The notes beneath the pieces were generated by a model. It made no database searches, was not told the DNA's origin, and saw nothing but the letters and a program-made list of their open reading frames with translations. The translations under genes and the position numbers were made by a program. From a bacterium (lineage in GTDB: Bacteria > Patescibacteriota > Saccharimonadia > UBA4664), in NCBI GenBank assembly GCA_016699105.1, contig CP064960.1, positions 520,727 through 584,726 of the forward strand: a DNA stretch of 64,000 bases, read 5' to 3'. This document shows positions 12,401 to 64,000 of this stretch, piece by piece (position 1 is the first letter of the stretch; each line of letters begins with the position of its first letter).

Positions 12401-12407
12401 TTATTCA

Positions 12408-12479: not shown

Positions 12480-12489
12480 TGATTCTGAC

Positions 12490-18382: not shown

Positions 18383-18387
18383 GTCCG

Positions 18388-18597: not shown

Positions 18598-18606
18598 ATC
18601 AAAAAC

Positions 18607-20778: not shown

Positions 20779-23700
20779 GTGGATGAGCATGGACCAGGTT
20801 ATTCACCTGATAATGAAGCTCCACCGACCAGGCCAATAGAAATACCGCCTGGAGTTTTTGGTACGACAGAGTCGATTGGTAATCCCGACGATCCCACAGA
20901 TAGAGAAACTGCTCATGAGAGCCATTTTACGCCTCCCGTAGAAGACCCATTTCATGGTGATGACGGTGTTGAAGCTAAGGCACGAGGAATTGCCCGGGCA
21001 CGGGCGGCAATCGAGCGTGCTCTTGGTTTGGGGCTTCCTGGCGAAAGTCGGCGAGAACGCCGAAATCGTCAAAAAATTGGCGAGACGTTATCGCAAGCTG
21101 GAATTGATGAAGATGCTGGTCTGAGTAGGGCGCGTGATGCACTAGCTGCTGTTGTAGACATGCATACCACTTCTGAAAATCCACAGCCAGATGAGAGTCA
21201 AGAACCATGGCGGAAACGAAAGATAAATCAGCTGCGTGAATATTCAAATGCGCGGTGGGGCGAATTTTTAAATCAAGTACGACAACCATCAGAGACCGAT
21301 GAAATATTAGAAGAGTCAACTGGGAAATCTGTTGAACCATCAGAGCTACCATCACAAATGGCTCGTATTCGGGGCTACTCAACGAAGCGCAGCGTATTAC
21401 TGATGCCGATGAATCTGCCATCCGTGAGCAAGCAATTATTTTGCTGGCTGTTCGTCGTGCACTATTAGCCTTAAATGTGGCTCAAGAATCAGCGTCAGGT
21501 GAGCGCGGAGATTTATCGATTGAAACGGTTCAGCCTGTGGGGGCACCTGGTCATGATGAAGTAGAACAGTTTAATGAAATAGCCAGATATTGTCGCCAGA
21601 GTTATGATCGATTGCGAGGCGCTCCAGAGAGTCCGAATATTCCTGTGTCGGTAACGATTGAGACAGAACAACCAGAAACTTTGCCATCTCCTGATGTTCC
21701 GTCAGTAAATATAGATGATCAGGTGAGTCGTGAGCAGCTTCACGAATGGCTTTGGTCTAGCCAATCTGAACCACTTATTCCGGAAGTGGCTAAGGCAAAT
21801 TTAACAGGTCATTATACTGAGTTGCATTTGCGATACGATCGACTCGACAAATTGGTTGCGCGTCATTCGAGTAAACCAGAATCTATGACAGTTAGCACCG
21901 ACTTCACAGCAGATGAGCGGGCACAATTGATTGATAAATTGAAAGCAGACTTAGGCTGTCAAACTGAGCTGGCACAAACTATTGGTTACCTTCCAGAGGA
22001 GCCGAGTAAAGAGAAAGGCGTAGTTGCACGACGTAATAATGCTAAGCTGCGAATGCGGAATTGGTTGAGACCAAAGCCGCATCGTAAAGACCTCGGAAAG
22101 AAGCTCAAATTCACGAAGTTATCCCAACACGTAATTCTCGTATAGCACTTGTAGTGACTCGGGCGGGTACGTTACAACAATCTGAGATTCAAGGTGTCCA
22201 TGTGATGATGATGCCAGATCCAGTATTTAGGCTAGCAGCTGACGCCTCAGCTCGGCTTGAAGTTACCGATATGGCAAAGGCTTATATTGTAAGTCCAAAT
22301 ACTTTTCAACTATCAAATCCATTGCCGACTCCTCCTGGCGCCATTTCAAGGATTCCTGAGACTCGAAACGCCACATCTATACCTGTTATTGAGAATGGGC
22401 CACGTGTACCTATGCCGACACCCGAATTGCCACAGGCATCGACGCAAGTGCCTACTGAGAATGGTATACAAGCGCCATATGTCCCGGGAATGGGTACTAT
22501 TGGGCCACAATTTTTACGCGCTGCAAGTAGTACAGTTGTTGAACATCGTACAGGCCGTCAGCGCGAAAGACGTGCGAGTGAAACGATTGATTTGGCTCAC
22601 AGTATGCTGGGCATGAAGACAAATGCGGTTGCACATGAGGCGCTACTGAGACAAGACGCGGTTTATCGAAGTGAGTATCAAGCTGCGACTTCTGCTCATG
22701 AAGTGGATCGAGATCGAGCACTACGTGATTTTTGGGAAACCCATGCCGGTCAGCTGGCTCAGCAGCGTGAGCTGCTGCAGGGCCCCCTCCAACCTCATGA
22801 GTTAAAGCGGGTGGAATTGCTTGGACAACTACTGAAGAGTTCGGAACAAGAAAAACAATTACAATCGTTGATGACAACATTAGTGAAGCGGGCTGCCGAT
22901 GCAACTGAGCGGTCGCCGATTGAAATCGAGATACCGGCTGACAATCCTGATGACCCACTGGAAAAAACACGATGGGCTGTTGAAGGTATTCTTGACCTTG
23001 CTATTGCTGCCCGAGCTGAAGGAGCAACAGAAATTGAGCAGAAAGCTGATCCATTTGCAACCAAGAATAATGCAAAAGAGGTTCAAGAAGCTCTTAGTCG
23101 GATATCTGACATTTGGCTGGCAAATCAATTTATCGATACCGTTTATTCAAAGTCAGTACCAATTAATGATCCCGAAATCTCGGCCAAATTGGGCGCTGAA
23201 ATTGTTGCAATCATGACTTCAAATGAAGCAGATACCGGATTTACTGAAGCAGAATTTGCTCAATTGGGGGCAGCCTTAACTGCTCGTCCAGCCGAGCTTC
23301 GTAAACAACAAGAGGCGGAGATCGGGCCATTTGCTCAGACTTTTTTCCGAGCATTTGAGGCGCTGCCTGACTATGAACCACCCGGCGGCGATGATAAAAA
23401 AATGTGGAAATTAACACCAGAACGAATAGCGGAGCGACGCCAGCTGCTGAATGGATTCAAAAAGCAGGCGGTTCAGAATCATTTGTTTGAACAAGTGCCT
23501 CCGGATGCAGTTGCCGATTGGTCGTGGGACGTAAAACCAGTTGAACAGGCCGATAGCCCTCGGACACAGAAATGGGCGCCAGAAGCTTTAAGTGTGTTCC
23601 AAGCCCTGGTGCGCGAACGGGATTTACTTGATCGACAAGAGCTTGATAATAAGTTGAAAGATCTTGGTGAGGTGATCAAACGACCAGATGTTAAAAATCC

Positions 23701-24982
23701 GGGTGATTCTTGGAAATTTGTTGAAGGTAGTGTTCAAAAACCTAGCCGATCCGGAGGCACTCGTTAAGGCAAAGGAGCGCTTGATTCGTGATGGGTTCGT
23801 AGAGCGGGTTAGTGTAACACAATCTGATGGTGCACTAACCGAGGTGTATAAGGTTATTGTAGATCCTAACAATCGACCACAGCTTGATCCAACAGTTGCT
23901 GAAATCTGGCAAACAATCGAGAGACTCGAAATTCGGAACAATTTGACTGGTATACAGCCACCAGATACGACGACAACTACTGTTGAAAATCAGCCTGGTG
24001 GGCGCATAGAGTTTACGCCTGATGTAGTCAATAATTTGGCAAATAAATTAGCAGGCGATGCCGTTGCTCCGGATGTGCTGGCTGACGTTAAGCGACAGAC
24101 TCAAGACCTGATCGTAGAAGCTGTGGCCAATCGGTGGGCTAGTATTTATTCTCCCAGCGCTGAAACTGATCGGCAGTTTTATAGTTTGAACTCGGGTGTG
24201 GCCGATGAGCAAGTTGCAGCCTTTGGGGCACTGATGAATGTGGTTAACCGGCTGGGCGAACTGGGGCAAACAGTGGAGGTCGATGAGCAAGCAGCACTGG
24301 CTCGGCGTCAAGAAGCAGTACAGACAACACGGCGCGAACTGTCTGCCGCAGATATTACGCGTGAAGCAGCCTATTTGGAAAGGACTGCACAGGATTTAAT
24401 GCAACAGCGGTCAGAGTTAAAAAGTAACAAAAAAAGACGCTAATCGTAGAGCTTTACTCAAGCTTGGTGAAACCATGGTGCGTCGTGGTTTTGCAATAGA
24501 AACTTAAAGAAGGTGAAATTGCACCGGCTGAGGGTATATTAGACGCAGACGCCCGCAAAGCGATCGATACCTATAATGCGTTTGTACGATTTACCGCCGG
24601 TCAGACGAGTTTTGATGATGAACCGTATGATCGACAGTTTGAAGCCGATAAGATGCGAGAGCGAGAGCGGGTAGAGACTGAATTTGAGGATCGTTTAAGC
24701 TTGATCGAGAATGATATACTGAGCAATTTCGTAAACTCGTTTGACACAAGTATTGAAGCAGCCAATGATGCTGATGCCTTACGTGCAGGTATTACAGCGA
24801 TGTTTAATAATGCTATCGCGAATGGTCTAGCGCAACGAAGTGCTGGAACAGCGAATTTGGAGCCTGTCATGATACCGAATACTGACCGTGAATCAGAAGT
24901 ATCAAAATCATTTGTTGATGCCTTCAACGATGCGCGTCAACGAGTCTATAGACGTGTGGCAGAACTGAGAGATACTACCTAA
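20779..24982 (+). CDS. large acidic hypothetical protein(s) of about 1400 aa, split into 5 ORFs by frameshifts
   Basis: The ORFs are 20779-21468, 21441-22145, 22154-23767, 23688-24443 and about 24500-24982. They overlap or abut in different frames. An upstream in-frame extension of each next ORF is open; for example frame 0 is open from 21333, and a switch at the GGGG run near 21370 would join ORF1 to ORF2. The proteins are acidic, helix-rich and low in complexity, with no signal peptide and no recognisable domain. Confidence 0.5.
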
Positions 24983-48793: not shown

Positions 48794-49912
48794 CTACTGT
48801 ACGACCCAATACTCGAAGCTGTAGCTGGTGTTGCTGGACGACGGTGCGTTGACTGCTCCCACGGTAAATCCGGTGGCGGTTTTAATGATGTATGGTTGCA
48901 AGGCAGCGCTGCCGCTACCTATGGGCGTGATGATGATATGGGGTGCTCGCGGATAAGCTGATTTGAAGGTGAGGTTGACGAGTAATCCCGCGGTAGAACC
49001 ACTTCCGGTGCGAATTGTGAGGGTGCCGGCGGAATCAATCCCCTCAACACTGGCACTCGAGCCTGATCCGGCTTGACCAGCCGGTGATGCTGATGGAGCT
49101 TGGCCAGAAATCGAAATATGTCCACCGATATTGAGGGTACCGGTCACTGTAACGGTCGTGGCATTGACTGTCGGCGCTGACACGACACCACCGAAACTGC
49201 CATTACCCGTGGTCGTGAGATTGCCGGTAACGGTAGCGCCGGCGCCCAATGTGACGGGGGACTGAGCACTCAAAGGACCAGCTACCGTGAGCTGGCCACG
49301 GACATTGGTGACACCAAGATTGGCCGTTTTATTGGCAGTCAATCCAGCCAATGTCGTATCGCCCGATACTTCAAGTCCACCAATGACCTTGAGGTCTTGG
49401 GAGACAGCGACACGGTTCGAAAACAAAGTGCTGGGGCTAATTGTTAACGTCTGGGCATTGCTCCCGGCTGAATTGCCTTCGAAAAAGCTACCGAGTTTCT
49501 TGAGATCTTCAGACGATAATTCGGTTGTCGTGGTAGTAGCGGTCGGTTGGTTTTTCGATTGCCGGATGGCAAACCAATAATAGCCGCCGAGTAAGGCGGC
49601 CAGGGCGATAATGACACCCAAGGTAGTCAAGAGTGTCGTCATGATATCGGCGCGACGATACACGCCGGTGCGCGACACTTTGCCTTTTGATACCGGTCGA
49701 TGACCATCGCCGGCTGACAATACCGTTGGCATGGTGCCATCTGATAGTGCTTCTGCAGGTGGCGCACCGGCTTTGGCCGCTGTCGGCGGAGCCGGATCGG
49801 CAGGTTTCGCTGGTTTGTCGGATTCGCTTTTGGGGTTTGCGGGTTTTACTGGTTCGTCGGCCATAGTCATATGATACCGCTTGTGGTTTGGAGCAGCAAA
49901 CTGTGTTAGCAT
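48794..49912 (-). CDS. type-II membrane protein with Pro/Ala/Lys-rich cytoplasmic head and extracellular beta-helix-like T/G/V repeat domain
   Basis: The N-terminal segment is Pro/Ala/Lys-rich (ADEPVKPANPKSESDKPAKPADPAPP). One TM follows (MTTLLTTLGVIIALAALLGGYYWF). Then come repeats of the LEVSGDTTLAGLTANKTANLGVTNVRGQLTVAGPLSA type. The likely start is MTMADEP at 49870. Confidence 0.7.
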   Translation of the reverse strand: MLTQFAAPNHKRYHMTMADEPVKPANPKSESDKPAKPADPAPPTAAKAGAPPAEALSDGTMPTVLSAGDGHRPVSKGKVSRTGVYRRADIMTTLLTTLGVIIALAALLGGYYWFAIRQSKNQPTATTTTTELSSEDLKKLGSFFEGNSAGSNAQTLTISPSTLFSNRVAVSQDLKVIGGLEVSGDTTLAGLTANKTANLGVTNVRGQLTVAGPLSAQSPVTLGAGATVTGNLTTTGNGSFGGVVSAPTVNATTVTVTGTLNIGGHISISGQAPSASPAGQAGSGSSASVEGIDSAGTLTIRTGSGSTAGLLVNLTFKSAYPRAPHIIITPIGSGSAALQPYIIKTATGFTVGAVNAPSSSNTSYSFEYWVVQ

Positions 49913-49919
49913 GACAGAT

Positions 49920-50866
49920 ATGGCTGTGTTCCAGGAGTTTAATCATGCCGTGCAGTTTGGACGGCGATTGCCCAAAAGGGAAACATCCTATGCCACCCTG
50001 GTATTCTTGATGATGGCATTAGGTGTGCTGTTGGGTAGTTTTACTTGGACGGCGGCAGCCGACACGCAGGGGACTGCCAAATACAGCGTGACGGCGGTGG
50101 TACCAGGTGCACGGCCAACTCAACCCGTCGTTATAACCTCACCGACAACTGGCCAAACTTTTACCGTCAATCCCGTTGTGGTGGAAGGAACCTGTCAGCC
50201 GGCGACATTAGTAAAAGTATTTACTAATGGCATCATGGTTGGCAGTATTTTTGTAGTGAAAACGGCCGCTTCAGTATTCCGGTGCAACTCGTGATTGGAC
50301 GCAATGATTTAACGGCGCAATCATTTAACGCTCTGGATCAAGAAGGGCCAACATCGGGGACAGTGACGGTTACACTCAACCAACCACCAGGAGCACCCGG
50401 CTTTTCCACTGAGTTATTGATTCAATCGGAGAATTATTATCGGGGGAGCGAGCCTGGTCAAGAGATTGTGTGGCCGATTGAACTCATTGGCGGATTGGCA
50501 CCGTATGCGGTGAGTATTGATTGGGGTGACGGTACTCAAGATCTCATAACCAGGTTGGCGCCGGGCCGGTTTACGGTCAGTCATACCTATAAACAAGTCG
50601 GGGGATACTTGGGATCATACCCGCTCATCATTCGGGCGACTGATTCGGCAGGTCGGACGGCTTATTTGCAATTGACGACCATCGTTAATTCGCCAACGGG
50701 TGCTACAACCGATGGCAGTGGTGCCCAGGCGACGAGCACAACTATCACAAAACTACTGGTGATTTGGCCGATATGGATAGTATTACTGTTGATGATAATC
50801 TCATTCTGGCTGGGTGAACGCCGTGAGAAACATATTATGCAGCGACAAATGGCGGCCTTGGCATGA
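49920..50866 (+). CDS. secreted Ig-like/PKD-domain protein with C-terminal TM anchor, one frameshift
   Basis: Signal peptide (RRLPKRETSYATLVFLMMALGVLLGSFTWTAAA). An Ig-like segment follows, then a PKD-type motif VSIDWGDGTQD...FTVSHTYKQVGGY. The C-terminal TM is LLVIWPIWIVLLLMIISFWL. ORFs 49881-50294 and 50282-50866 join if the TTTTT run at 50247-50252 is corrected. Confidence 0.7.
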
Positions 50867-51570
50867 AGTGGTTTGGTAAACGACGGCCACCTGAACCGGA
50901 AGCGCCGGCTGCTCTGCATGCCAGTGAGCTTCATGGCATGGCGGCTGAGGATTTGGCCGATTATGAGCAAGAGCTAGAATTAACTGATAAGCGCGAAGGC
51001 AAGGGATCCCGGCGTAAAGCTTGGTGGATCACGATTATCATCATGGGGGTGGTAGTAGGCGGTACCATAATTTTGATTTTGAAATATACTTCGGCTCCGG
51101 TAACAGTTGATTTGTCGGCGGCCGCTCCCAGTATTCGGCCGACGCCGACACCTCAAAATGGTCGGGGATTATTATCGGGAATATATGTGGCTTTGGAATA
51201 TCCGGGAGAATTTGATCAAGTCTCGAGAATAACTTCTGACCCAACGGCACTCGAACAATATTCAATCGGTTCGAAAGCCAGTTACCGGCGGCTGATTGCG
51301 GTAAATGTGCGCAAACTGGAATCAGGAAATCTAGATGATGATGCTAGTTATAAACGGCGGCTATTGTATCCAAAAGAGTATACTGAAACCAAGCAGGCGG
51401 TGACGGGAGCTAAGGTGAGTATAATGACAAAAGTAGATGGTCATGAACAAACGCTCTTTTGGGCGCAGGGGGGAAAACTGTTAACGGTGTCGGCTACTTC
51501 AACAGAGTCCGGTGACAATGTACCGGCCTTTTTGGCGACGGTGCGGGAGAGTGTGACATGGCGTCAATAA
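50863..51570 (+). CDS. single-pass membrane hypothetical protein
   Basis: 235 aa. An N-terminal charged region is followed by a TM (AWWITIIIMGVVVGGTIILIL) and then an extracytoplasmic domain. Confidence 0.6.
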   Translation: MKWFGKRRPPEPEAPAALHASELHGMAAEDLADYEQELELTDKREGKGSRRKAWWITIIIMGVVVGGTIILILKYTSAPVTVDLSAAAPSIRPTPTPQNGRGLLSGIYVALEYPGEFDQVSRITSDPTALEQYSIGSKASYRRLIAVNVRKLESGNLDDDASYKRRLLYPKEYTETKQAVTGAKVSIMTKVDGHEQTLFWAQGGKLLTVSATSTESGDNVPAFLATVRESVTWRQ

Positions 51571-52613
51571 CTACGTGGCTGGGATTACCATTGGTATTGT
51601 TGCTATCGGCGTTACCAGCCAGCAATAACTACGAGCTCGGATCATATGGCTTTGGGACCGGTGGCACCAGTAACTCGAGCTCGAGCAACTATCGAATCAA
51701 TGGCGCTGCCGGTGAAGTAGCGGGGTCACAAAACTCAACCAATTATAAAGCAGGTGCTGGTGTCAATTATGAACAGCAAGCGAACGTGCCGATCATCACT
51801 ATTAGTAATGATGACAATTGGTACAACAAACTCAAAATTATCATTGATGCGCAGAACAATCCTAGTGACGCGGTTTTTGCGGTGGCCATATCGACAGACG
51901 GCTTCACGACCACCCAGTATGTGAAATCTGATTTAACGATTGGTTCGACATTAGCCCTAACAGATTATCAAACCTATGCAGCTTGGGGTGGGGCAACCGG
52001 GGTGATGGTGCGCGGACTGGCACGGTCGACGGTCTATTCGGTGAAGGCCCGGGCCATGCGGGGTGATTTCACTGAAAGTGCCTGGGGACCGACGAGTAGC
52101 GCCAGTACGGTAGATCCGACTTTGGTATTTGATATTGATGTGGCGCCAACTGATACGTCGACAAGTTCACCATATGTCGTGGATTTTGGTAGTTTGCCGG
52201 TCAGTACGGTCAGCCAGCCAGCTGATCAAGTGTGGGTTAGTTTGAGTACCAATGGTGAGTCTGGCGGTAAAGTATATCTGAGTGGCCAAAACGCTGGTTT
52301 ACGTAGTACCTTGGCCAGTTACACGATTGCCTCGCAAACTGGCGATTTGAGTGCATTAGCAGAAGGATTTGGGGCTCAGGGGCAATCGGCTACTCAGGGT
52401 TCAGGTGGACCATTGAGCTTGGTCGCGCCGTATAATTCAGCGGGTGCACTCGTGGGAGTTACTGATACAGTTATTCGGGAGATGTTTACAGCACCTGCAC
52501 CTGTTACATCGGGTCGGGGTTCGTTTACCCTCAAGGCTAAAACCCAACCACTGACACCTTCGGGTGGAGACTATGCGGAACTGTTACAGGCTATCGCCTC
52601 GGCGAGCTTTTAA
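51558..52613 (+). CDS. secreted hypothetical protein
   Basis: 351 aa with a signal peptide (MASITTWLGLPLVLLLSALPASN), then a Ser/Thr/Gly-rich globular region. No known motif. Confidence 0.65.
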   Translation: MASITTWLGLPLVLLLSALPASNNYELGSYGFGTGGTSNSSSSNYRINGAAGEVAGSQNSTNYKAGAGVNYEQQANVPIITISNDDNWYNKLKIIIDAQNNPSDAVFAVAISTDGFTTTQYVKSDLTIGSTLALTDYQTYAAWGGATGVMVRGLARSTVYSVKARAMRGDFTESAWGPTSSASTVDPTLVFDIDVAPTDTSTSSPYVVDFGSLPVSTVSQPADQVWVSLSTNGESGGKVYLSGQNAGLRSTLASYTIASQTGDLSALAEGFGAQGQSATQGSGGPLSLVAPYNSAGALVGVTDTVIREMFTAPAPVTSGRGSFTLKAKTQPLTPSGGDYAELLQAIASASF

Positions 52614-52706
52614 TGATTGTGAATAAATGGGGTTGACAAAAATACAGCGTTTACAATAGGATAAGCGTAAGTAGTTCAGTAATAAAAACTACAAATCAAA
52701 ATCAAA

Positions 52707-53846
52707 ATGCAGAATCGAAAACTACACATCACCCTCGCCGCAATCGCCGCCATCATGGCGGACTTGTTCGTGCCAGCGCTTGTTGGTACGGCTTTAGCGG
52801 CGCCACAGTTTACGCAAGCGTTCGTACGACCTGATCGGCACAAGGAGCTGACAGCTACAGGTGCGACCGTTTGTGCGACACCGACAGCAGCGACAACTGG
52901 TCAAACTGAAGACCAAGTGGTGGTCATATTCCCGACTGACGGTGGTGCCACTGACTTTGTGGTAAACGCTACCGCTGCGAACTGGGTTGTAAACAATACC
53001 GACCTGCCAGCGGGCTCGACTTTCTGGCCTGGTATGACTTCGGGAACAACAACAGCATCAAATGTCAGTGGAAAAACCGTCACTTTTCCATCAGGTGACT
53101 TGTCAGCAGCAACTCAGTATTGTTTTCACATTGTAGGCACAAACACCCTGACAAATGGCTCGGCTACTACCTCTATCAACATTACTGGTGCGACATTATA
53201 TAGCCGAGTATCTGGTGGACCTACGATCGTTAACCAAACCAACTGGGCTTATACTGTAACTACCGATGATAGTATTGTCATCTCAGCGGTAGTGCCGCCG
53301 AACTTCACCATCGCCTTGAGCGCCTATGTAGACGCCTTCACAACAAACCTTGACCCTGCCGGCATCGTCAGCACCACAGGAGTTGATGCCACTATCACGA
53401 CCAATGCTGTCGGTGGTTGGATAGCTTGGGCCAAAGATCAATATGGTGGACTGTATTCGGCCGCAGCTAACTATACCATAGCTTCAGGGCTGATGAACCC
53501 ATACCCAACCCAACTGTATGCGGTCGGCGACCCTGCCTTCGACCTGGTGGCCAGTGCCGGTGGAGTTGGACGTGAAGGTTACGTCATGGACGTCGATATC
53601 GATACTGATGCTGCAAGCGGTTGTACCGTCGCAATTGATGCTGCGTACAACAGCGCGAGTGGTAATGGTGGCGGCGTCTTGAGCAGCACCAGTTTCCGGC
53701 CAATCGCTGGTTGTACCGGAACAGCGCCTGCGACTTCAGATGGTGATATCATCACACTCATCGAACGAGCGGTCATCCGCGGTGGTACTCCAGCCGGATC
53801 AGACTATACCGACGTCATTACTGTCGTCGGTGCTGGTAACTTCTAA
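52707..53846 (+). CDS. secreted surface protein, paralog A of a tandem pair
   Basis: 379 aa with a signal peptide. It shares conserved blocks with the next gene: VVPPNFTIAL, GGWIAWAKDQYGGLYSA, EGYVMDVDIDTDAASGCTV, AGCTGTAPATSDGD and a C-terminal SDYTDVITVVGAGNF. Confidence 0.75.
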   Translation: MQNRKLHITLAAIAAIMADLFVPALVGTALAAPQFTQAFVRPDRHKELTATGATVCATPTAATTGQTEDQVVVIFPTDGGATDFVVNATAANWVVNNTDLPAGSTFWPGMTSGTTTASNVSGKTVTFPSGDLSAATQYCFHIVGTNTLTNGSATTSINITGATLYSRVSGGPTIVNQTNWAYTVTTDDSIVISAVVPPNFTIALSAYVDAFTTNLDPAGIVSTTGVDATITTNAVGGWIAWAKDQYGGLYSAAANYTIASGLMNPYPTQLYAVGDPAFDLVASAGGVGREGYVMDVDIDTDAASGCTVAIDAAYNSASGNGGGVLSSTSFRPIAGCTGTAPATSDGDIITLIERAVIRGGTPAGSDYTDVITVVGAGNF

Positions 53847-53972
53847 AAGTACCATTCACTTTCGAAAACTATCATAGCCCATAAGCAACATGCAATAGTT
53901 TACTTGCATGTTGCTTATGCTTTGGAGTACACTTGAGGGGAAACTAGAAATAAAGAGAGAGTGTAGATTAGA

Positions 53973-55049
53973 GTGTCCATGCAGCGGGTCCGGCGGACAA
54001 AGCGAATACGGATAGTCGGAGCTATAATTCTGCTGCTCGCGGTAGTGGCTGATTTTGTACCTATACAGGCACAAGCTGGGTTTATCCAAGCTTATTTGCG
54101 TCTCGACCGGATGAAGATTAACACTGCTAGCGGTGGTTTGGTCTGTGCTCGGGCGTCATTGGCCGGTCCAACCGAAGCCAAAGTCATTGTGACATTTCCT
54201 TCGACGTATACGCTTAATACTACGGCTGCCAACTGGGTGATGACAACCACCAATCTGCCGAGCGGAGCTACGGCCTGGCCGGGTGTTGTGTCTGGTACTA
54301 CTACAGCCAGTGCTGTGGACAATACTCTCAAGACGGCGACGTTTCCGTCAAATGACTTACCTAACAACACCACGTTGTATTGTTTTAATTTTGCGGCCGC
54401 CAGTACATTGACGACAGCGGCTGCGGCCGCTAATAGTCAGCAAGCCAGCATTCAAACTCAGACATCAGCCAATGCGGTGATTGATCTGACGCAAATAGCA
54501 CTAGCTAATGCTACCGATGACACTATTCTTGTGACAGCGGTGGTGCCACCGTCGTTTATTTTTACCATGAGCGGTTATGCTGACCCCTTTGCTTCGAATC
54601 TAGACCCGCTCGCGGTTGTAAACACGAGCGGTATTATGGTTGATGTCGTCACAAACGCTAAAGGTGGCTGGATAGCGTGGGCGCGTTCGCAGTACGCGGG
54701 ATTATATTCGGCGACGGCTGGGTATACTATCCCGACCGTTGGTACGATCAACGGAGCTGTATCGAACCTAACGGCTGGAAATGAAGGGTACGTGATGGAT
54801 GTAGACCTGACGGCTGATGCGGCCAGCGGTTGTACAGTCAATATTGATAATGAATATGACGGATCTACAGCCACTGAGGGCGGAACGCTGTCGACGAGCT
54901 ACCAGCCTTTAGCTGAGTGTACAGGTACCTCTCCTGCAACTGCCAATCATGATCAATTTACTCTGACTGAACGCGCGGCGATTTCGGGTGCAACGCCAGC
55001 CAGCTCAGACTATACTGATAATATAACGGTCGTAGGGGCAGGTAATTTT
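53973..55049 (+). CDS. secreted surface protein, paralog B of the tandem pair
   Basis: It shares the same motif set with paralog A (VVPPSFIFTM, GGWIAWARSQYAGLYSA, EGYVMDVDLTADAASGCTV, AECTGTSPATANHD, SDYTDNITVVGAGNF). The track ORF reads through to 55157, but removing one T from the T6 run at 55045-55050 creates TAG directly after GAGNF, matching paralog A. Confidence 0.75.
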
Positions 55050-55056
55050 TTAGACT

Positions 55057-56160
55057 ATGAAGTTGTCCGATTCGGTAGTGAAATGGGTGTGTGCCAGTTT
55101 AAGTGCGGTCATGATTGCGGGCAATTTGAGCTGGCCGGCGACGGTATATGCGGTTGACGCTGAAGAATCCGCGCCGCTGGTATTACAAACGTCGCCGTTG
55201 CCGATAAATTTGCAAGTTGATCCGGGTAAATCGGTAACTACCGAGCTCAAAGTCAAACAAAGTGGGACTGAAAAAGCCCGGCTCAAGGTCGGTTTGATGA
55301 AATTTACTGCCTATGGTGAAGAGGGTAAGCCCGAACTCAAAGACCGAGAAGCTGGTGATGATTATTTTGATTGGGTTAAATTTGATAAAACCGAATTTGA
55401 TGCGCCCATCAATGTGTGGCAGACCGTCAAAATGACTATTACGGTACCAAAATCAGCCGCTTTTGGGTATTACTATGCTGTAACGTTTTCGCGCGTGGGT
55501 GACGATGTGAAACGGACTGACCGGACCAACTCAATCGCGGGAGCGACAGCGACATTGGTGCTGTTAGAAGCTGTTAATCCGAATGCAAAGCGCGAGCTGC
55601 AGCTTGATAGTTTTGGCTCAAAACATCGGGTATATGAGTTTTTGCCGGCTGAGTTTGATATCAAACTCAAGAACGTGGGTAATGTGCATGCGGTACCTTC
55701 GGGAGATGTATTCATCTTGCAGGGCAATAAGCAACTGGCGGCGTTGCCGATCAACGGTGGCTTCGGCAATATATTGCCGGATTCAAACCGAATATTCCCG
55801 GCGAAGTGGAGCGATGGCTTTCCGCACTGGGAGCCAGTGATTGCCGATGGTAAAACCAAGCTGGATAAGAACGGCAAAATTGTTAAAAAATTGGTCTGGG
55901 ATTGGGGCAAGCTTAGTAGTATCAGGATTGGTCGCTATACTGCCCATTTATTTGCCGTCTATGACGATGGTAAGCGCGATATTCCAATTGAAACTGAGAT
56001 TACGTTTTGGGTGATTCCGTGGCGGTTCCTACTAGTAGTGCTGGTGATATTGGCACTGGTGGCTCTCGGTGTGTACGGTATGGTGCGGGAGGCTTCAATA
56101 AACTGGCTGGCAAGCGCGGCAAATCAAGGACACTGCGCGGCCGGAGGCGGTAATGATTAG
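55057..56160 (+). CDS. DUF916/DUF3324-like cell-surface protein with C-terminal TM anchor
   Basis: Signal peptide. The N-terminal domain (VLQTSPLPINLQVDPGKSVTTELKVKQSGTEKARLKVGLMKFTAYGEEGKPEL) and C-terminal domain (FDIKLKNVGNVHAVPSGDVFILQGNK) are arranged like CscA-type Gram-positive surface proteins. It ends with a TM segment (FLLVVLVILALVALGVYGMV). Confidence 0.65.
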   Translation: MKLSDSVVKWVCASLSAVMIAGNLSWPATVYAVDAEESAPLVLQTSPLPINLQVDPGKSVTTELKVKQSGTEKARLKVGLMKFTAYGEEGKPELKDREAGDDYFDWVKFDKTEFDAPINVWQTVKMTITVPKSAAFGYYYAVTFSRVGDDVKRTDRTNSIAGATATLVLLEAVNPNAKRELQLDSFGSKHRVYEFLPAEFDIKLKNVGNVHAVPSGDVFILQGNKQLAALPINGGFGNILPDSNRIFPAKWSDGFPHWEPVIADGKTKLDKNGKIVKKLVWDWGKLSSIRIGRYTAHLFAVYDDGKRDIPIETEITFWVIPWRFLLVVLVILALVALGVYGMVREASINWLASAANQGHCAAGGGND

Positions 56161-57090
56161 TCGGCGACAGATCTGGTTACTGGCAGTAATGATTGTCTGT
56201 CTGCCGGCAGTAGCGATGTCGGCAACCAAACCCACTGGACTCGTGCTGACGCCAGCTTTTCAGACAGTGCAGATAAAGACTAATGATGGTCGGCTCCCAT
56301 TTGAGCTTTCGATAACCAATCGCGATACCTCGGCACAAACGTTTGCCTTGTCGGCAATTGATTTTGGCAGCCTTGATGAAGAAGGTGGCGTGGCATTTCT
56401 GGGAGCGCCAGCCAGTGAACTCGAGCACAAGTATGGCTTGGCGGCTTGGTTGGAGCTCTCTCAGAAGTCGGTTGTAGTGTCTCCCGGGCAAACGGTAAAA
56501 GTGGGGGTGACGATCGTTAACCGACCCAGTTTGGTGGCAGGCGGACATTATGGAGCAGTCTTAGCTACGGCTCAACTACCCGGATCGGCAGTTAAGGGTG
56601 AGCAAGTCGGTGTGCAACAAGTCTTGAGTAGTTTGATACTGGCGGTCAAAGAAGGCGCTGGTGGTGCCAAATTGGATCTGAAAAAGACAAACTGGCACCA
56701 CAGTTTTTGGCGCTTGCCGACTGAGTTTAAGCTCGGATTTGGCAATAGTGGCACGGTTCACGCGCTGCCGCGAGGTACGGTGGTGGTAACAGATCCTGGG
56801 GTCGAAAAGTGGCTCAAGGCGAGCTCAATGAAGCCAGTAGCGTGATACTGCCGGAAACGAACAGGAATTATGAAGTCGCTATGCGGACTGTCAGTCAAGC
56901 TTGGTTGCCCGGCCGCTATATGGTCAGTATCAATTATCGCGACGAAACCCAAGAAAATTTTCAGGCAGTCCATCAGACAATATGGCAGGCGGGTGCGGTC
57001 GTCGTCTGGGTTGCCATGGTGTTGGCAATCTTAAGTACCGCCGGACTGGCTTGGTGGTTGTTTGGGCGTCGCCGAAAACGTCGACGTTAG
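56153..57090 (+). CDS. second DUF916/DUF3324-like anchored surface protein, with a frameshift near 56810-56845
   Basis: Same architecture: signal peptide, LVLTPAFQTVQIKTNDGRLPFELSITNRDTSAQTFALSAI, then GNSGTVHALPRGTVVVTDP. The C-terminal part (NYEVAMRTVSQAWLPGRYMVSINY...VVVWVAMVLAILSTAGLAWWLFGRRRKRRR) is in overlapping ORF 56809-57090. Confidence 0.65.
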
Positions 57091-57185
57091 CCTCAAAAAC
57101 TCTTGTGTTTAATCTGTAAACCAGTTATGCTTTTGGTGTAACTTTGTGATGGTAGGCGAGTGCCCAAAGGCTTGTTTTTAGCCGA

Positions 57186-60100
57186 ATGATGTGGGTTAAG
57201 TCGGTAGCATATAACCGTCGCAAGGTCGCTGGGGCACTCTTTGCCACCAGTCTTTTGGCGTTGGCTTTGTTCTTGAATGGACTAAGCAGTGTGCAAGCTG
57301 CAGTTGGTATCAATAAACAGGTCAATTTCCAGGGTAAAGTCGTCAATGCCAATGGCACCAATGTAGCCAATGGTACCTATACGTTTGTGTTTAATATCTA
57401 TACCCAACAGGCTCCCGGTGGGACTTCAATTTGGACCGAGTCAAAAAGTCTGACCGTGACAGACGGAATTTTTCAGACCAATTTGGGTTCGGTGACGAGC
57501 CTTCCGGGATCGGTGGACTTCAATACCGATAATATTTTCCTGGGGATAAACTTCAACAGTGACGGCGAAATGACGCCACGTATTCAATTCACGGCTGCCG
57601 CCTATGCCTTTAACTCAGATCGTTTAGGTGGACTGACGGCGGCATCGTTCGCGCAGCTCAGTCCAGCCTCTGCCCAAACCGGCTCGCTCAATGTCACTGG
57701 CACGGTGCAAGCAGCTACTAGTTTACAAGCGCCATTACTCGATACGGCGACGGCTGTGGCGCTCAATATTGGTACTGCCACTGCTACAAGTGTGACCATT
57801 GGCCGGACTTCAACACCGTTTGTGGTGCAAGGCAACAGTAGCTCGACTTTTACAGCCACCAACGGTAGCTTTACAGCTACAGTTGGCTTTACGACCCCGA
57901 CGGCCAATAACAGTATTTCGTTCCCGAATGCCGGGGGCACAATTTGTACGACTGTCGCTAGTACCTGTAATACCACTTACGCACCATATGCTGCTGGTGG
58001 ATATCTGGCCAAAAATGCTGCCGACACCTCAGCCGCAGCCGTGACGGCTGCCAATTACTTGTACGGATTTACCAATTCGAGCTCGGCCGTGGCAAGTGGA
58101 GTTCTACGACTCGACAATGGTACCAACACTGGTAACGGTTTGTTGGTTACAGCCAGTGGTAATCCGGGTGCTAGCAGTGCCTTAATTGTGGCCAACAACA
58201 CCGCCGGATCCCAGCGGCAATTTAATTGATCTCAAAAGCCGGAGTCGGTGTCTTTACAGTTGATTATAACGGTAGCCTGACCCAAAGCGGGGATCAGGTA
58301 CTACCCAGACGATTAACGGCCAGAGGATATCGAGTGCGGCCAACTTCACTGGCACCGTGACGGCTGCTACCAGTTTCTTGAGTACGTTGATCGATACACC
58401 TACTGCTGGCGGAACACTGGCAATTGGTACGACCAACGCTACTGGCGGTATCAATTTGAACCAAAATACCACGGTCGGTAGTGGCAAGACTCTCACCGCA
58501 AACGGATCAGTCCTGGTACAGTCAGCCGCCAATTCTACTTCGTCGTTTAACATTAAAAATTCGACAAACAATAACTTATTTACAGTAGATACTTCAAACT
58601 CAAGAGTCGGCATTAATCTGACTAGCAATAATGTACCGACACTTCAGGGAACCGGGTTGGAAGTGAATGGAGCATTACGGCTATCGGGTGGACGTAGTAG
58701 TGGTACGGCGGTCGATACATTTACAACACCAGCAAGTAGTAGTGTTGAAACTAAAATTAATATACCGATATATGATGCAGGGGCATTCGGACAGGTTTTA
58801 GCATTTGGCTTACCGTCGACAGGCTGTACTGGTGTAACGACTACCAGCTGTACGGCCAGGGCTATTTCCGTTTTTGACGCACGGACGCTTAGCCATCAAC
58901 CTTCAATTGGCGTGTTCGCACCAGATGAAAATACCTTGGTTGGTTTTTCGTGGGAAGGCAGTAATAGTGTGGCTTCGGTAATGACAAATTCAGGTAGTGG
59001 ATCTAGTGACGGCATCATACTGCAAAGTGGTGCCACCACGGGCGCCAGTGGTACCTCGGGTACCGTATCGGTGGTCAGCGGCGACGGCACTGGTACCAAT
59101 AGCTCAAGTGGCAACGTGACAGTAGATTCGGGCGCCAAGACTGGTACCGGTACGAATGGTACGGTAAATATTGGTACAACTAATGCCAGTGCCGTGACGG
59201 TAGGTCGCAACAATAGCGGTGTAGCTTTGACGTTGCAAGGATCAGCTTCGACCATTTTCCGGGCGACTGGTGTGAGTGGTACCACTACATTAGACTTCAC
59301 CGCTCCCAGCGGCTCGAATACTGTGCATGTGCCAGCCGAATCGGGCACGATTTGTCTCCAATCAAGTGTAAACTGCGGTTTTGTAGTAGGTTCGTCGACA
59401 AGCTTCTTGGCGCGTAACGCTGCCGATACTTCGACAATCAATGCAGCGGGAAATCTTTATGGTTTGAGCAATACTAATGCTGGCGCCGCTGGAGTGCTGG
59501 CTTTGACTAATGCTGGCACCAACTCGGCACTGGCAGTTACGAGCTCAGGTAACCCAACGAGCGGTCAAGCGGTCATATTGGCTACTAATTCAAATGGTTC
59601 TCCCAGCGGCAATCTTATCGATCTGCGGGTGACAGCAGGGAGTCGGTTTAGTGTGGACACAGCGGGTGTAGCGACAGCAACAAATTCGATCGTGACACCA
59701 ACCCATACTTCGGCAGATGTAGCAACTGGATTATCGGCTGATGCCACGTTTAGATCTGGTAACGGGACCGCTGGTAACGCTAGTACTGGCAGTGTTACGG
59801 TACGGTCGGGTAATGCTAATGGTACTGGCAGCTCGGGAAATGTGACGTTTGATGTTGGTACCAAAGGTGGGGGAGTCGGAAGTAATGCTGGAAATCTGTA
59901 TATCGGCAATACCAATGCGGCCAATGTGGTGGTGGGTCGAAATGCGGTTACGGCCAGTGGCGCCACCGTTTCCATCCAAGGCTTGGCCGCCACCAGTAAT
60001 ATGATTATGAACAATGCCGCCAATACGGCTAGTACCACGATAGGATTTCAAGCACCAACTGCCAACGTAACCTACGAATTTGCGGCCGCGACTGTCGGAA

Positions 60101-62904
60101 CCTATCAATTGTGTAGCACCTATGCCACAACCTGTAGTACGACTTATGCACCCTATACGGCTGGTGGTTACTTGGCTAAATCGCCGACAAGCACCGAAAG
60201 TTCAAGTAGCTCGATAGCGGGCAATCAGTACAGTTTTGCTAATACTAATGGTGGGGCCGCGGGTGTGCTGGCACTAGCCAATACCGGTACGAATTCGGCG
60301 TTGAGCGTGTCGAGTGCGGCCAACCCAACAAGCGGCCAAGCGGTAATCTTGGCGACCAATTCCAATGGTACGCCTTCAGGCAATTTACTTGACTTGCGGG
60401 TAACGGCGGGTAGCCGGTTTAGCGTTGATGCGGCTGGAGCGGTAACCACCAGTAGCACTATTAATGGGCAGACCATTTCAGCAACGGCCAACTTTACCGG
60501 TACCGTCACGGCAGCTAATACAGTCAGTATTACTACAGGTGGCTTGAGTGTGACGGCTGGTGGTGTAGCTATTACAGCAGGTGGACTAACAGTGTCAGCA
60601 GGTGGAGCGAATATTAGTGGTGGTCTCAATAATAATGCCGGTGGCATTACCAATACCGGAGCTGTCAGTGGGGCGACCAGTTTAGCCTTTACGGGTGCGG
60701 CTGCAGATGTTACGGGCGCCCGGGACATTACCGGAACGGGCACCATTACTGGTGGCGGAGCGTTCAAATCGGCAGATAGCACGACGGCTAGTTCAAGCGC
60801 TACCAGCCTCAAGAGTGGAGATGTCAACACTGCTACGAACGGATTTAATACCGGCAATGTGATCGTTGACTCTGGTGCTCGAACGGGTGGTGGAACTGGA
60901 ACAACTGGCACTGTCAGTATTGGGGCGACTAATGCCAGTGGTGTGACGGTTGGTAATAGCGCTGCAGCCTTTACCGTGCAGGGAACGGCTGGTAGTGGTG
61001 CGTCGAAGTTAGTTTTGGAAATACCACGGTCAATGCCCAATCGTCAGCGACGGTGGCTACCTACCAATTTGCCGCACCGACCAGTGCCACAACTTACACC
61101 ATTTGTACGACTGATACCGCTTCCTGTGGCGCTGGTTCCGTGGGGTATTTGCGCAAAGGGTGGCGGGCGAGACATCTTCGGCTGGCATGACGGCCGCGCA
61201 AGCGCTGTACAACTTTTCCAATACTGGTGGTGTCCAAAGTGACGTTCTTCAACTCGATAATGGTGCTGGCACTGGATCGGCCTTACGCGTAACGGCAGCT
61301 GCTAGTGCGGCGGCCAACAATGCCCTGGTGTTGGTGGACAATACCCTCAACAATGCTACGGGCAATCTGCTTGATCTACGAAGTACTCAAGCCGGCGTCA
61401 GCGCCAGCCGCCTAAGCGTGAGCACGACGGTGCGGTTACGGGCGGCACTTTCAACGGCCAAACGATAAGTGCCACTGCTAGTTTCACAGGTACTGTTGGT
61501 ACGGGCGGACTGTTGACAGCCCATAGCTTGACCGTGACAAACACAGCTACCTTCAATGCTGGAGCGACTGTTAACAACGTGGCCTTGACGGCCAATGCTG
61601 GAGCTTCCGTGACCGGTGGTATCAATAACAACGCGGGCGGCATAACGGGTGCTGGAGCCATCAGCGGATTGACGAGCCTCGAGTTTAGCTCGGCTGGCAC
61701 CATTGATACCAACGCTGCCATTTCTTTGAGTATCGGTACTGCTCAAGCTTCGACAGTGTCCGTCGGTCGCACTGGTGGCACGCTCAGTTTGCAAGGAAAT
61801 GCTTCAACGTCACTTTCGGCGACCAACGCAGGTTCGACTACCAGTCTGCAGTTTGCCACACCTACCGCCAATGTGATCTACCAATTTGCGACAGCTCCAG
61901 CTAACACCTATCAGATCTGTACCACCTATGCCAGTACTTGTAGCTCAACGTATGCTGCCTATTACGCGGGTGGTTATGTGCAGTTGGCTCCCGGCACAGC
62001 CCAGGCCGACGCCACAGCTAACCCCAGCATCTTTATCAGCAAAACAGCAGCTGGTTATCTGGCCAGACTCCAAAATACCGGCACAGATGTATTTTCGGTT
62101 CAAACGAACGGCACTATGACATCGAGTGGTTTAGCCTACTTGGGTGGCACATCTGGCAATTATGTAGCGCAAGTTGATACGACTAATTTCAAAGTGCGCA
62201 TTGGTACTGGTACGCCCACTAGGGGCAGTGAAGGTGCCAATTCGACGGCTGGCTTGTATGTGAGTGGCGCCACTGAAGCGGCTGGACTCGTACTTATCGG
62301 TACTACTTCCAACGGGGCCACCTTCGACGCAACCAACCATGAGCTGACGTTATCGGGTACTGCCCGGCACACTCGTCGGGTCTCAATGGTGCCGGAATAT
62401 GCCGGGGCAGTTATGACACCGAGCGGTACTTCAAATACGGGGTTGATGACCTCGGACTTTTGTTCTGGATCAGGGCGCCTAAACATTCCAACTAGTGGCA
62501 ATGTGTGTGCATCCAGCGACGAACACAACTTCTATAAATGGGTGTCGGCCAACTCGAGTACCCAAACATATGACATCTATGTGCGGTATTTGCTCCCGGC
62601 TGACTTTTCGGCCTTTACCGGCGATAATACAATATACATGAGCGGTTACCGGACGACATCAAGTGATAGCGTAGCTCTGGCTATCTATCAACCGAATGGC
62701 ACAATTTGTGGCTCATCGACGAACATAGCTACCGGTACGGCAGCCTGGACCGAGAATACGGTGACTGCGCCCATCGCCACCACCTGTGCTGCCAACTTTA
62801 CTGCTAATTCATTGGTGACGTTCCGGGTAAGACTGACCTCAACGAGTACGGTAAATGCAGCGTTAGCAGGGGAGATACGGTTTGACTATCGCTCGATTTA
62901 TTAA
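57186..62904 (+). CDS. giant secreted repetitive surface protein of about 1900 aa, fragmented by several frameshifts
   Basis: The ORFs are 57186-58229, 58357-61242, 61160-61468 and 61513-62904, plus pieces in other frames. The first ORF starts with a signal peptide (MMWVKSVAYNRRKVAGALFATSLLALALFLNGLSSVQA). At least five repeats of a roughly 330-aa module carry Q[FI]xxPTANxxYxFA...TYQ[IL]C[ST]TYA[ST]TC[ST][ST]TYA[PA]YxAGGY[LV] and NSNG[ST]PSGNL[IL]DLRVTAGSRFSVD. The DNA repeats are about 75% identical (59521-59680 vs 60291-60450). The sequence ends with a distinct C-terminal domain and a TAA stop at 62904. Confidence 0.7.
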
Positions 62905-62909
62905 TAAGT

Positions 62910-64000
62910 TGCCGCGACCATCGCGGGCGTGGTGGACTCAAGCTCGTGATGGCAAACCAGCCCGGATTGTGGGCGTGGCGGTATTTAGCTTGAGTTTGTT
63001 TAGTGGCTTTGCGGCGGTTATGATCCGGCCACCAGGAGCATCGGCGCTCATTGAAACTGGCGATGGCTTAACGGTCTATGGCAATAGCGCCACTTCATCG
63101 ACAACACCGCGCTACCGTGATTATTATGAATTAACTGATTCATTTGGCTCTGAGACAAATACCGTATCGGGCTCGACGCCTTTGGCGATGCAGATTAAAA
63201 CGTCGCCCGTCAAAACTGAAGCCATAGTGGGTTATCAGAACTCGTCGGGTACTCTGCAAATTATGTGCTATGACGGCACCAACTGGAGTAACGATTGGAG
63301 TGTATCTAGCTATGGTACTGGCGTTACACGGGCGTATGACATTGCCTATGAGTGGCAAAGCGGTGATGTCGTTGTTATGTATAGCACCAATACTGCCACC
63401 ACCAATGAATTGGCATTTCGGCGCAAAGCTGGCGGAAAGGCCTGTGGTGGGGCTAACTGGGATTCGGCCGTCAACGTTAATCCGGTGCGGACGTCGGCCA
63501 TTATCAACTGGGTAACTTTGCAGCAAGACCAAAATAGTAATAACATTGCAGCTATTTGGGCAGATTCAAGTCGCGACTTATCGGCCATGATTTATGACGG
63601 GACAGCTGGTACCTGGGGCAATGAGCCCACGGCCGCTATTGCGACCAATTTATCGTATGTGACATCAAGCACACGATCGGACACGGAATCGTTTGATTTG
63701 GCTTATGAAAGTGTATCCAGTGACTTAATGATCGTCGCGGGTAATTCGGGCAATACATCGAGTGGTAATAACCTAATCACCTATAAAACTTGTACCGGCG
63801 GTGGAGCGTCTTGTACCTGGCAAACGACGAGCACAGTCCCTTCGCAACAGGCTCAGGATAATGCCAATCACCTGGATATGGCGGCCAATCCACAAACCAA
63901 TGAAATTGTGTTTGGCGCAATTTCGAATGGTGAAGACTTGTCGATTGGCTATTGGGACGGCTCGTCATGGCCGACAACTGGTAGCCGAGGTCTGCCCAAT
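62910..64000 (+). CDS. secreted or membrane-anchored protein with beta-propeller-like repeats, partial (runs off the window end)
   Basis: It has an open frame from the TTG at 62910 to the window end, about 363 aa. The N-terminus is basic with a TM (KPARIVGVAVFSLSLFSGFAAVMI). Repeated YDGTxxW / WDGSSW blocks follow. The ORF track omits it because the window has no stop. Confidence 0.65.

Follow-up and report, generated by a model that had tools for sequence, protein, structure and literature searches.

Positions 48794-64000 of the 64,000-nucleotide stretch of contig CP064960.1 analysed here (the window) hold a run of ten genes, one on the minus and nine on the plus strand, and all of their products are exported or membrane-anchored. 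We conclude, with a probability of roughly 0.8, that this locus is a Pam-type pilus operon of a Saccharimonadia bacterium (candidate phyla radiation, CPR; Patescibacteria). It was placed in the Pam pilus system because the product of its second gene is a full-length homolog of PamR and that of its fourth gene carries the N-terminal motif of PamT. The initial annotation of this DNA had listed the consecutive secreted and anchored genes correctly, and the order of the first eight genes was found kept in 18 other genomes as far as each locus extends. It had also proposed an undescribed apparatus resembling a Csc/WxL-type surface complex. The PamR homolog and the PamT motif assign the locus to a published system instead. 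This system was described only recently, NCBI models exist for two of its parts, and the locus is a divergent, partly annotated layout of it.

The fifth gene (g5) is intact in the window. Its exact protein, annotated as 'hypothetical protein IPG36_03650', was looked up and led to the same locus in ten further contigs. All gene models are based on the longest of these, the short-read contig L001, in which the gene set is intact (contigs and loci used for comparison carry L numbers). The genes are listed below as gene calls in L001 mapped back to the window.

g1: 48794-49864, minus strand, 356 aa, type II membrane protein
g2: 49911-50866, plus strand, 318 aa, PamR homolog
g3: 50863-51570, plus strand, 235 aa, single-pass membrane protein
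g4: 51558-52613, plus strand, 351 aa, secreted protein with PamT motif, putative minor subunit
g5: 52707-53846, plus strand, 379 aa, candidate major pilin (open reading frame intact in the window)
g6: 53979-55053, plus strand, 357 aa, candidate major pilin
g7: 55057-56153, plus strand, 365 aa, predicted membrane-anchored chaperone-like protein
g8: 56153-57090, plus strand, 312 aa, predicted membrane-anchored chaperone-like protein
g9: 57189-62904, plus strand, 1907 aa, large secreted protein (intact in L001 and L036)
g10: 62882 to beyond 64000, plus strand, 873 aa in L001, exported or anchored protein, of which the window holds the N-terminal part only

By hydrophobicity scan, an N-terminal signal or anchor segment was found in nine of the ten products, the weaker signal of g7 corresponding to helix 5-25 of its structure model. 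C-terminal transmembrane (TM) helices were found in g2, g7 and g8. Poly-basic tails are confined to g7 and g8, and g1 and g3 show a single-pass topology. Scans with Pfam and NCBIfam gave no family match to an usher, a sortase or an ATPase among the locus products, and none of the ten matched an outer-membrane usher.

Relationship to the Pam pilus

The Pam pilus was described for Ca. Mycosynbacter amalyticus (Troman et al., bioRxiv 10.64898/2026.03.03.709456). Cryo-electron microscopy of the filaments of this bacterium identified the two pilins PamA (WP_260763287) and PamB (WP_260763280). In each of them an N-terminal sandwich of nine strands is followed by one linker strand and by a C-terminal immunoglobulin (Ig)-like domain, which is open and takes the linker of its neighbour. 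Conservation was found highest in the linker and the C-terminal domain. The pam operon also codes for PamE and for the tip subunit PamT, which has a single domain and no linker strand, for the PapD/FimC-like chaperones PamC and PamD, which retain a C-terminal TM helix, and for PamR, an RbmA-like, TM-anchored terminator. In the Pam models the chaperone completes the subunit by strand complementation. Homologs were reported from CPR bacteria only. A 'tail fibre-like protein' co-localises with pam operons. The pili were proposed for host contact, and their ATP-synthase neighbourhood was emphasised (bioRxiv 10.64898/2026.03.03.709456).

Using the NCBIfam model NF058578 (CPR_pilus_PamR, 'pilus system RbmA-like protein PamR'), g2 was matched with an E-value of 3.4e-88 over profile positions 2-295 of 297. 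All 30 members of the g2 family that were scanned matched PamR as well (best E 2.5e-91). The protein starts with a signal or anchor segment, continues with Ig-like domains and carries its C-terminal TM helix at residues 282-300. Its Ig domain is best labelled Big/Glucodextran_B-like (Glucodextran_B/Big_6 in Pfam), since the PKD domain assigned initially was found only as a sub-threshold match (E 0.058). RbmA, the biofilm matrix scaffold of Vibrio cholerae with two fibronectin type III domains, to which PamR was likened in the Pam preprint, differs in that it is soluble and lacks a TM anchor. The homology of g2 to PamR is observed, and by the model of the preprint the protein would act as membrane anchor and terminator.

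The NCBIfam model NF058579 ('CPR-type pilus protein PamT') matched g4 with an E-value of 2.9e-7. The C-terminal part of g4 (residues 211-351) is related to the C-terminal domain of g5 and g6 (hhalign probability 97.3-97.5%, E 2e-11 to 6e-12). The N-terminal domain of g5/g6 is not shared, the middle domain of g4 is distinct, and LVFDIDV is a candidate linker-like segment. From these sequence relationships g4 is probably a secreted minor or tip-like subunit with a distal position. Directly after the signal peptide, residues 20-81 (51615-51800) form a strongly conserved Gly/Ser/Asn/Tyr-rich motif, LPAS-NY-LNSYGFG-GGT...NY-NG-AGE; this region is the sole part which g4 has in common with the PamT model.

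The tandem pair of paralogous secreted proteins noticed earlier was confirmed for g5 and g6 (47-50% identity, hhalign 100%). In g5 the signal peptide is followed by an N-terminal beta-sandwich of nine strands, a hydrophobic linker (186-204) and a C-terminal beta domain. In its AlphaFold2 (AF2) model (60 homologs, pLDDT 88.7) nine strands precede residue 181, residues 181-199 are unpaired, and the C-terminal beta domain follows. The most conserved 15-residue segments of the g5 family were found at 353-367 and 230-244, both in the C-terminal domain, and at 186-200 in the linker (TDDSIVISAVVPPNF). Mean information was highest in the linker (3.46 bits), followed by the C-terminal domain (3.02) and the N-terminal domain (2.79). 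In hydrophobicity, the linker ranks second among the segments of g5. Both this layout and the conservation of linker and C-terminal domain match the pattern reported for PamA/B. The proteins end in GAGNF, and no LPXTG motif, TM helix or basic tail was present at the C-termini of g5 and g6. Orthologs of g6 were found in each locus long enough to include its position. Based on the models and the family alignment, g5 and g6 are candidates for the major pilins, predicted as two-domain all-beta subunits. A search of PDB sequences with the pilin family profile gave no match. Fold and PDB sequence searches with g5, made in PDB copies that lack the Pam entries 25PZ and 25QA, returned no Pam entry, and no WxL chain was among the best folds.

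Further features are shared with the Pam system of M. amalyticus. Both belong to CPR/Saccharimonadia hosts, and both encode secreted two-domain subunits with a conserved inter-domain linker and C-terminal domain in addition to PamR and the PamT motif. As with PamC and PamD, a pair of two-Ig paralogs with a retained C-terminal TM helix is predicted (g7, g8), a likeness in architecture. In both systems usher, sortase and ATPase are lacking and a large fibre-like protein is encoded alongside.

Several observations weigh against the assignment. With 295.3 bits (295.3 to 296) g2 falls 4-5 bits short of the equivalog cutoff of 300 bits for NF058578, and therefore the NCBI pipeline would not name it PamR automatically. 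The PamT match of g4 is confined to its N-terminus (residues 19-81, model positions 26-89 of 241, 30 bits versus a cutoff of 240), as it is in all 18 g4 orthologs, and g4 is 110 aa longer than the model, with an extra domain. The gene order is PamR, g3, PamT-like, pilin, pilin, chaperone-like, chaperone-like, compared to C-B-R-D-E-A-T in M. amalyticus (deduced from accession order). Two rod-pilin candidates instead of three are present, g5 and g6 (357-379 aa, both PamB-sized) versus PamA, PamB and PamE. For g3, a conserved single-pass membrane protein, no equivalent is named among the published pam genes. Within the 48 kb upstream, a scan of the larger open reading frames (ORFs) showed no ATP-synthase genes, and the neighbours on that side are ftsZ-ileS-ftsW-rplU instead. 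The NCBIfam models matched neither the pilin (60 relatives) nor the chaperone-like family (63 g7 relatives). Equating g5-g8 with PamA-E would rest on architecture and context rather than on direct alignment, and we infer strand exchange and polymerisation, the structure models obtained here being of monomers.

The anchored pair g7/g8 and its relation to WxL/Csc clusters

In WxL/Csc clusters, WxLIP (CscA) is composed of DUF916 (PF06030), DUF3324 and a TM helix, CscB and CscC are WxL proteins, and CscD is an LPXTG protein (Siezen 2006, PMC1534035; Hassan 2023, PMC10599100; PDB 9i1y, 9i25). WxLIP has been predicted to complete the WxL sandwich via an inserted strand. The initial annotation had described g7 and g8 as DUF916/DUF3324-like. 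The two proteins are paralogs of each other (hhalign probability 99.1-99.3%). The AF2 model of g7 (63 homologs, pLDDT 88.2) shows two beta-sandwiches between the signal helix and a C-terminal TM helix (322-353), after which the sequence ends in a basic tail; g8 has a C-terminal TM helix as well, with a tail ending in RRRKRRR. A total of 1075 homologs was found for g7. Comparing the g7 model to the PDB by Foldseek, the top match was 9i25_C, the E. faecium WxLIP (locus A, bound to the long WxL protein), with an E-value of 1.4e-10 and a TM-score of 0.50. The WxLIP entry 9i1y ranked third and fifth, interleaved with the chaperones CsuC and CfaA, and YadV, Caf1M and FimC followed at lower ranks. 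The E-values were 2e-9 to 1e-6 for the chaperones of chaperone-usher systems and about 1e-8 for RbmA.

For profile comparisons, a DUF916 motif query served to collect six WxLIPs and eleven annotated WxL proteins from plasmids of Enterococcus, Listeria and Bacillus. This set also holds one unannotated neighbouring ORF (L029 5020-5694) without the WxL C-terminal motif. The chaperone-usher set comprised five E. coli K-12 chaperones (FimC, YadV, SfmC, ElfD, YcbF) and ten pilins. The hhalign results were as follows.

WxLIP versus g8 family: probability 89.9%, E 1.7e-6, 227 columns
WxLIP versus merged g8+g7, local run: probability 96.5%, E 9.7e-10, 230 columns
WxLIP versus merged g8+g7, second run: probability 96.7%, E 4.1e-10, 223 columns, colinear over both domains
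WxLIP versus g7 alone: probability 6-13%, weak, 267 columns, colinear
WxLIP versus reversed profile (control): E 0.011, 16 columns
WxLIP versus eight column shuffles (control): E 0.09 or higher
WxLIP versus g1, g2, g3, g4 and g5: probability 1.2% or less
FimC-type chaperones versus g7, g8, g7+g8 and WxLIP: probability 0.5% or less

No Pfam match to DUF916 or DUF3324 was found in g7, g8 and 63 relatives of g7, even at E-values up to 10. Weak sub-threshold matches to PF06030 (now WxLIP_PGBD) were present in five of 26 g7/g8 orthologs (best E 0.034). The PapD family (PF00345/PF02753) was matched in Pfam neither by g7, g8 and the 63 relatives nor by the 26 orthologs, and a search of PDB sequences with the profile of the chaperone-like family gave no match. 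Fold and profile comparison thus bear out the earlier DUF916/DUF3324 label as remote homology to WxLIP, and Pfam does not support it as family membership. From sequence profiles and the structure model, g7 and g8 are predicted to be membrane-anchored, chaperone-like (PamC/D-like) proteins and remote homologs of WxLIP (DUF916-DUF3324), which by Pfam criteria are not members of that family. This evolutionary link goes beyond the literature searched and is apparently unreported: WxL, DUF916 and Csc are not mentioned in the Pam preprint (bioRxiv 10.64898/2026.03.03.709456), and no paper linking WxL or DUF916 with Saccharibacteria or Patescibacteria was found in the literature searched. No sequence link to the PapD family was detected. 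Among the 63 g7 relatives, 17 showed weak matches to the Pfam GEVED domain and eight, likewise weakly, matched 'choice-of-anchor T' of NCBIfam (best E 5.6e-4).

Pam pili and the WxL/Csc clusters of Bacillota may represent two branches of one ancient monoderm donor-strand system, with the anchored two-Ig 'chaperone' (PamC/D = WxLIP) as its hallmark. We put this forward tentatively, judging the odds to lie slightly against it. If true, WxLIP and not the periplasmic PapD family would be the nearer relative of the Pam chaperones. In that case WxLIP would serve as a chaperone or assembly factor, not as a host-binding adhesin, and WxL clusters might build strand-linked assemblies.

The relationship to WxLIP also bears on the proposal, made in the initial annotation, that the locus encodes a Csc/WxL-type complex, i.e. 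a non-filamentous, wall-associated heterocomplex in which the CscA/WxLIP-like proteins hold two CscB/C-like partners and an LPXTG protein serves as further, CscD-like partner. The anchored proteins are indeed similar in size (312-365 aa here versus 337-365 aa) and share the architecture of signal peptide, two Ig-like domains, C-terminal TM helix and basic tail. WxLIP is the top solved-structure match of g7, in agreement with the profile homology (96.7%, E 4e-10). The layout resembles real WxL clusters as well, with genes for small secreted beta proteins upstream of the gene for the anchored two-Ig protein and large adhesin genes adjoining. WxLIP is likewise predicted to bind its partner through a beta-strand which completes a sandwich, as would be expected for this locus from the Pam model. 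The reference WxL clusters (L025 2233-5996, L027 2431-5936, L028 1141-4999) consist of a large adhesin, a small LPXTG protein, three WxL proteins and WxLIP; the small LPXTG protein is annotated in L025 and L027, and a class A sortase follows directly in two Enterococcus plasmids.

However, the putative partners differ. No WxL domain was found by Pfam in the locus proteins, the WxL profile gave a probability of 0.1% with g4, g5 and g6 (hhalign), and no W-x-L motif is present in the paralog pair g5/g6, so that the WxL likeness suggested for this pair found no support in sequence, motif or fold. The published definition of a WxL cluster demands at least one WxLIP and at least two WxL proteins, the latter within four genes of WxLIP (Hassan 2023, PMC10599100). 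The locus is not a WxL cluster by this definition because it encodes no WxL-domain proteins. Instead, the partners here would be two-domain subunits built to polymerise. Two anchored paralogs are found here instead of one, both below the Pfam thresholds for DUF916 and DUF3324, and the PamR-type terminator and the PamT motif are markers of a pilus system. In contrast to real clusters, no LPXTG gene is adjacent. The sole LPXTG ORF of the window (16721-17143) lies 32 kb upstream, behind the genes for S1, IF-2, SecDF, RecJ, RelA, HisRS, FtsA/Z, IleRS and FtsW. Its 140-aa product shows an N-terminal TM helix, a Pro/Thr/Ser-rich spacer, LPDTG, a hydrophobic segment and a basic tail, and is a bona fide sortase substrate. 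The initial annotation was right in recognising this protein, and its distance and the intervening housekeeping genes speak against a role as CscD-like partner. In summary, of the proposed Csc/WxL-type complex the WxLIP-related anchored proteins stand, and the complex as such is an unlikely explanation of the locus.

Proposed assembly of the fibre

The Pam-type operon would encode a donor-strand-exchange fibre of a cell without outer membrane, assembled without usher and without sortase. All products would be exported by Sec, as indicated by their N-terminal signal sequences. By sequence and AF2 model, g7 and g8 would be tethered to the cytoplasmic membrane via the C-terminal TM helix and the poly-basic tail, with the Ig-like domains facing outward. 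Following the models of the Pam preprint and the precedent of WxLIP and WxL, they may lend a strand transiently to the open C-terminal beta domain of new subunits. g5 and g6 would then polymerise head to tail, with the linker of one subunit taking, in the C-terminal domain of the following subunit, the place of the strand lent by the chaperone. This step is modelled on the cryo-electron microscopy of PamA/PamB, and the domain layout and conservation pattern of the g5 family are consistent with it. g4, with its shared C-terminal domain, different N-terminal part and PamT motif, would be a minor and probably distal subunit, and the PamR homolog g2 would terminate the fibre and anchor it in the membrane. 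g1, g3, g9 and g10 would be conserved exported neighbours, with g9 as a likely long fibrous adhesin. Most likely, the structure mediates contact with a host bacterium; the earlier guess of a host-attachment surface is in line with the proposal of the Pam preprint (bioRxiv 10.64898/2026.03.03.709456).

Chaperone-usher pili (Fim/Pap, archaic Csu, alternative CFA/I) offer a second comparison. The fold of g7 is similar to CsuC, CfaA, YadV, Caf1M and FimC, and ATP-free donor-strand complementation and exchange would be expected in both cases. On the other hand, outer membrane and usher are lacking here, g7 and g8 are membrane-anchored whereas the known chaperones are soluble, the donor strand would be an internal linker rather than an N-terminal extension, and the subunits carry an extra N-terminal domain. 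Profile comparison with FimC-type chaperones and Fim-type pilins detected no relationship (probability 0.8% or less), and the E. coli chaperone-usher pilin profile showed no relationship to g4, g5 and g6 by hhalign.

Strand exchange might also proceed without any chaperone, as in fibres of the TasA type, archaeal bundling pili and archaeal threads, with g7 and g8 as permanent anchors or adhesins. WxLIP was read by its describers as a stabilising anchor, not as a chaperone, and chaperone turnover is without experimental evidence. Against this stand the two anchored paralogs, which immediately follow the subunit genes wherever a locus is long enough, the strong match of g7 to the folds of chaperone-usher chaperones, and the locus L015, in which a pilin and a chaperone-like gene were duplicated as a module, which suggests cognate pairs. 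A chaperone-free fibre is therefore considered very improbable. In L015 this additional pair (16426-18739) is inserted between the first g7 copy and g8. A first pilin of 427-485 aa (versus approximately 375 aa) was observed in L008 (12925-14208), L018 (13942-15399) and L019 (7260-8549), recalling the larger N-terminal domain of PamA compared to PamB. Finally, a sortase-assembled pilus of Gram-positive type, or unrelated surface proteins lying side by side, can be practically dismissed, as g5 and g6 end in GAGNF and not in an LPXTG motif, TM helix and basic tail, no sortase was matched in the locus by Pfam and NCBIfam, and 18 species keep both the genes and their order.

Accessory genes, assembly errors and conservation among Saccharimonadia

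g1 is a type II membrane protein whose cytoplasmic N-terminus is rich in Pro and Ala; its single TM helix lies at 74-92, and its ectodomain is repetitive and rich in Thr, Gly and Ala. Its orthologs were found in 18 of 18 loci with 44-55% identity, and we regard it as a divergent, conserved neighbour that may be a fibre or an adhesin. g3, with orthologs in all 18 loci (30-45% identity), combines an acidic N-terminus in the cytoplasm with a TM helix at 55-73 and approximately 160 aa of ectodomain; it matched nothing in Pfam, NCBIfam or PHROGs, and g4 had no PHROG match. The secreted g9 contains 55% Thr/Ala/Gly/Ser, six regularly spaced CxxxxxxC pairs and four GNLIDL motifs, arranged in about 5-6 modules, and a distinct C-terminal domain of approximately 250 aa. 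It is likely a long fibrous adhesin. Either g9 or g1 may be the 'tail fibre-like protein' of the Pam preprint. g10 is exported or anchored, with an N-terminal hydrophobic segment at 29-47. For g1, g9 and g10 no match was found in Pfam, NCBIfam and PHROGs, and hhalign detected no relationship to any locus, WxL or chaperone profile. Single-sequence searches with g1 and g9 gave no PDB sequence match, and the C-terminal part of g9 had no relative in viral contigs.

The ORF list between 46 and 64 kb is fragmented, with g9 appearing as three ORFs and g8 and g2 as two each. Comparing L001 and window positions 42713-63836, an identity of 99.0% was found with 193 mismatches and 18 gap columns. In the window 17 bases are deleted, 13 of them within A/T/G/C homopolymer runs, and the sole inserted base, a T at 55046, also lies in such a run; two 2-nt deletions in g9 are the exceptions to the homopolymer location. 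The indels are located at 44575, 45421, 45704 and 47242 (all in ileS), 50247, 52628, 55046, 56086, 56794, 57174, 58209-58288, 61012, 61157 and 61428. As a consequence, the essential ileS is broken at four sites and g2 is split by a 1-nt deletion at 50247. The extra T at 55046 abolishes the stop codon of g6, so that the ORF in the window extends to 55157. 1-nt deletions at 56086 and 56794 lead to a changed tail of g7 and a frameshift in g8, respectively, and eight deleted bases in g9 leave at least three ORFs. In four independent short-read assemblies the genes were called intact, and the 318-aa 'PKD', 312-aa anchored and roughly 1900-aa giant proteins of the initial annotation equal these intact genes. 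The frameshifts are treated as errors, typical of an unpolished long-read assembly, since the essential ileS carries four deletions of the same type and most indels fall in homopolymers; true pseudogenisation was rejected on the same grounds. Owing to these indels, ORF-based annotation of the window under-calls genes.

The substitutions between window and L001 are unevenly distributed. Values of 2.4% for g1, 1.8% for g9 and 4.3% for g10 (62882-63836), the highest, were found, compared to about 0-0.2% for g4-g8 and the housekeeping genes. As 91 of the g9 substitutions are synonymous and 9 non-synonymous, diversifying selection was rejected as their cause. The excess suggests a recombined tract under purifying selection or strain-specific alleles of the fibre genes.

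For the conservation analysis, the PamR-family alignment was searched against one genome per GTDB species, yielding 18 loci, all from Saccharimonadia/Patescibacteria metagenome-assembled genomes. Named relatives in the lists of the best 120 homologs were likewise only such genomes of Candidatus Saccharimonadia or Patescibacteria, the others being metagenomes. M. amalyticus was neither in these lists nor among the 18 loci. By tblastn and blastp of g1-g10, the order of g1 (minus strand) and g2-g8 was found kept in 18 of 18 other loci as far as they extend; four loci stop before g8, and of these L010 and L021 before g6. In L018, g1 sits between g2 and g3, unlike in the other 17 loci. A g9 homolog followed downstream of g8 in 12 other loci, i.e. 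on every flank long enough. The upstream block ftsZ-p87-yggT-ileS-ftsW-rplU is conserved among related loci. The clustering is not due to chance because the order and the ftsZ-ileS-ftsW-rplU neighbours recur in all 18 species-level genomes. With its genes co-localised and in conserved order and chromosomal position, the locus is part of the core genome and not an island. The earlier view of a co-localised surface locus of a small-genome bacterium, here one of the CPR, was thus borne out, and its homologs are not scattered.

The remainder of the window is housekeeping, with 23S-5S rRNA and the genes for S1, IF-2, SecDF, RecJ, RelA/SpoT, HisRS, FtsA, FtsZ, IleRS, FtsW and L21. The 23S rRNA match (8695-12161) spans 3467 nt compared to 2925 nt of the model; within the approximately 540 extra nt no intron or other Rfam family was detected. 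A 5S rRNA gene follows at 12293-12401, and no 16S gene was found in the window. The ORFs 12451-13977 (508 aa) and 22154-23767 (537 aa) had no Pfam match at E-values up to 1e-5.

Knowledge of Pam pili comes from one cultured species and a single preprint; they were proposed as the first contact of parasitic CPR bacteria with their hosts. The locus adds a second operon layout, conserved in at least 19 Saccharimonadia lineages at a fixed site beside cell-division genes. The current NCBI models do not reach its diverged subunits and chaperone-like proteins, so that annotation pipelines will miss most of the system. The link of g7 and g8 to WxLIP provides a testable answer to the question of origin which the Pam preprint left open, and it suggests reading the widespread but little-understood WxL clusters of enterococci, listeriae and lactobacilli as relatives of a strand-exchange assembly machine.

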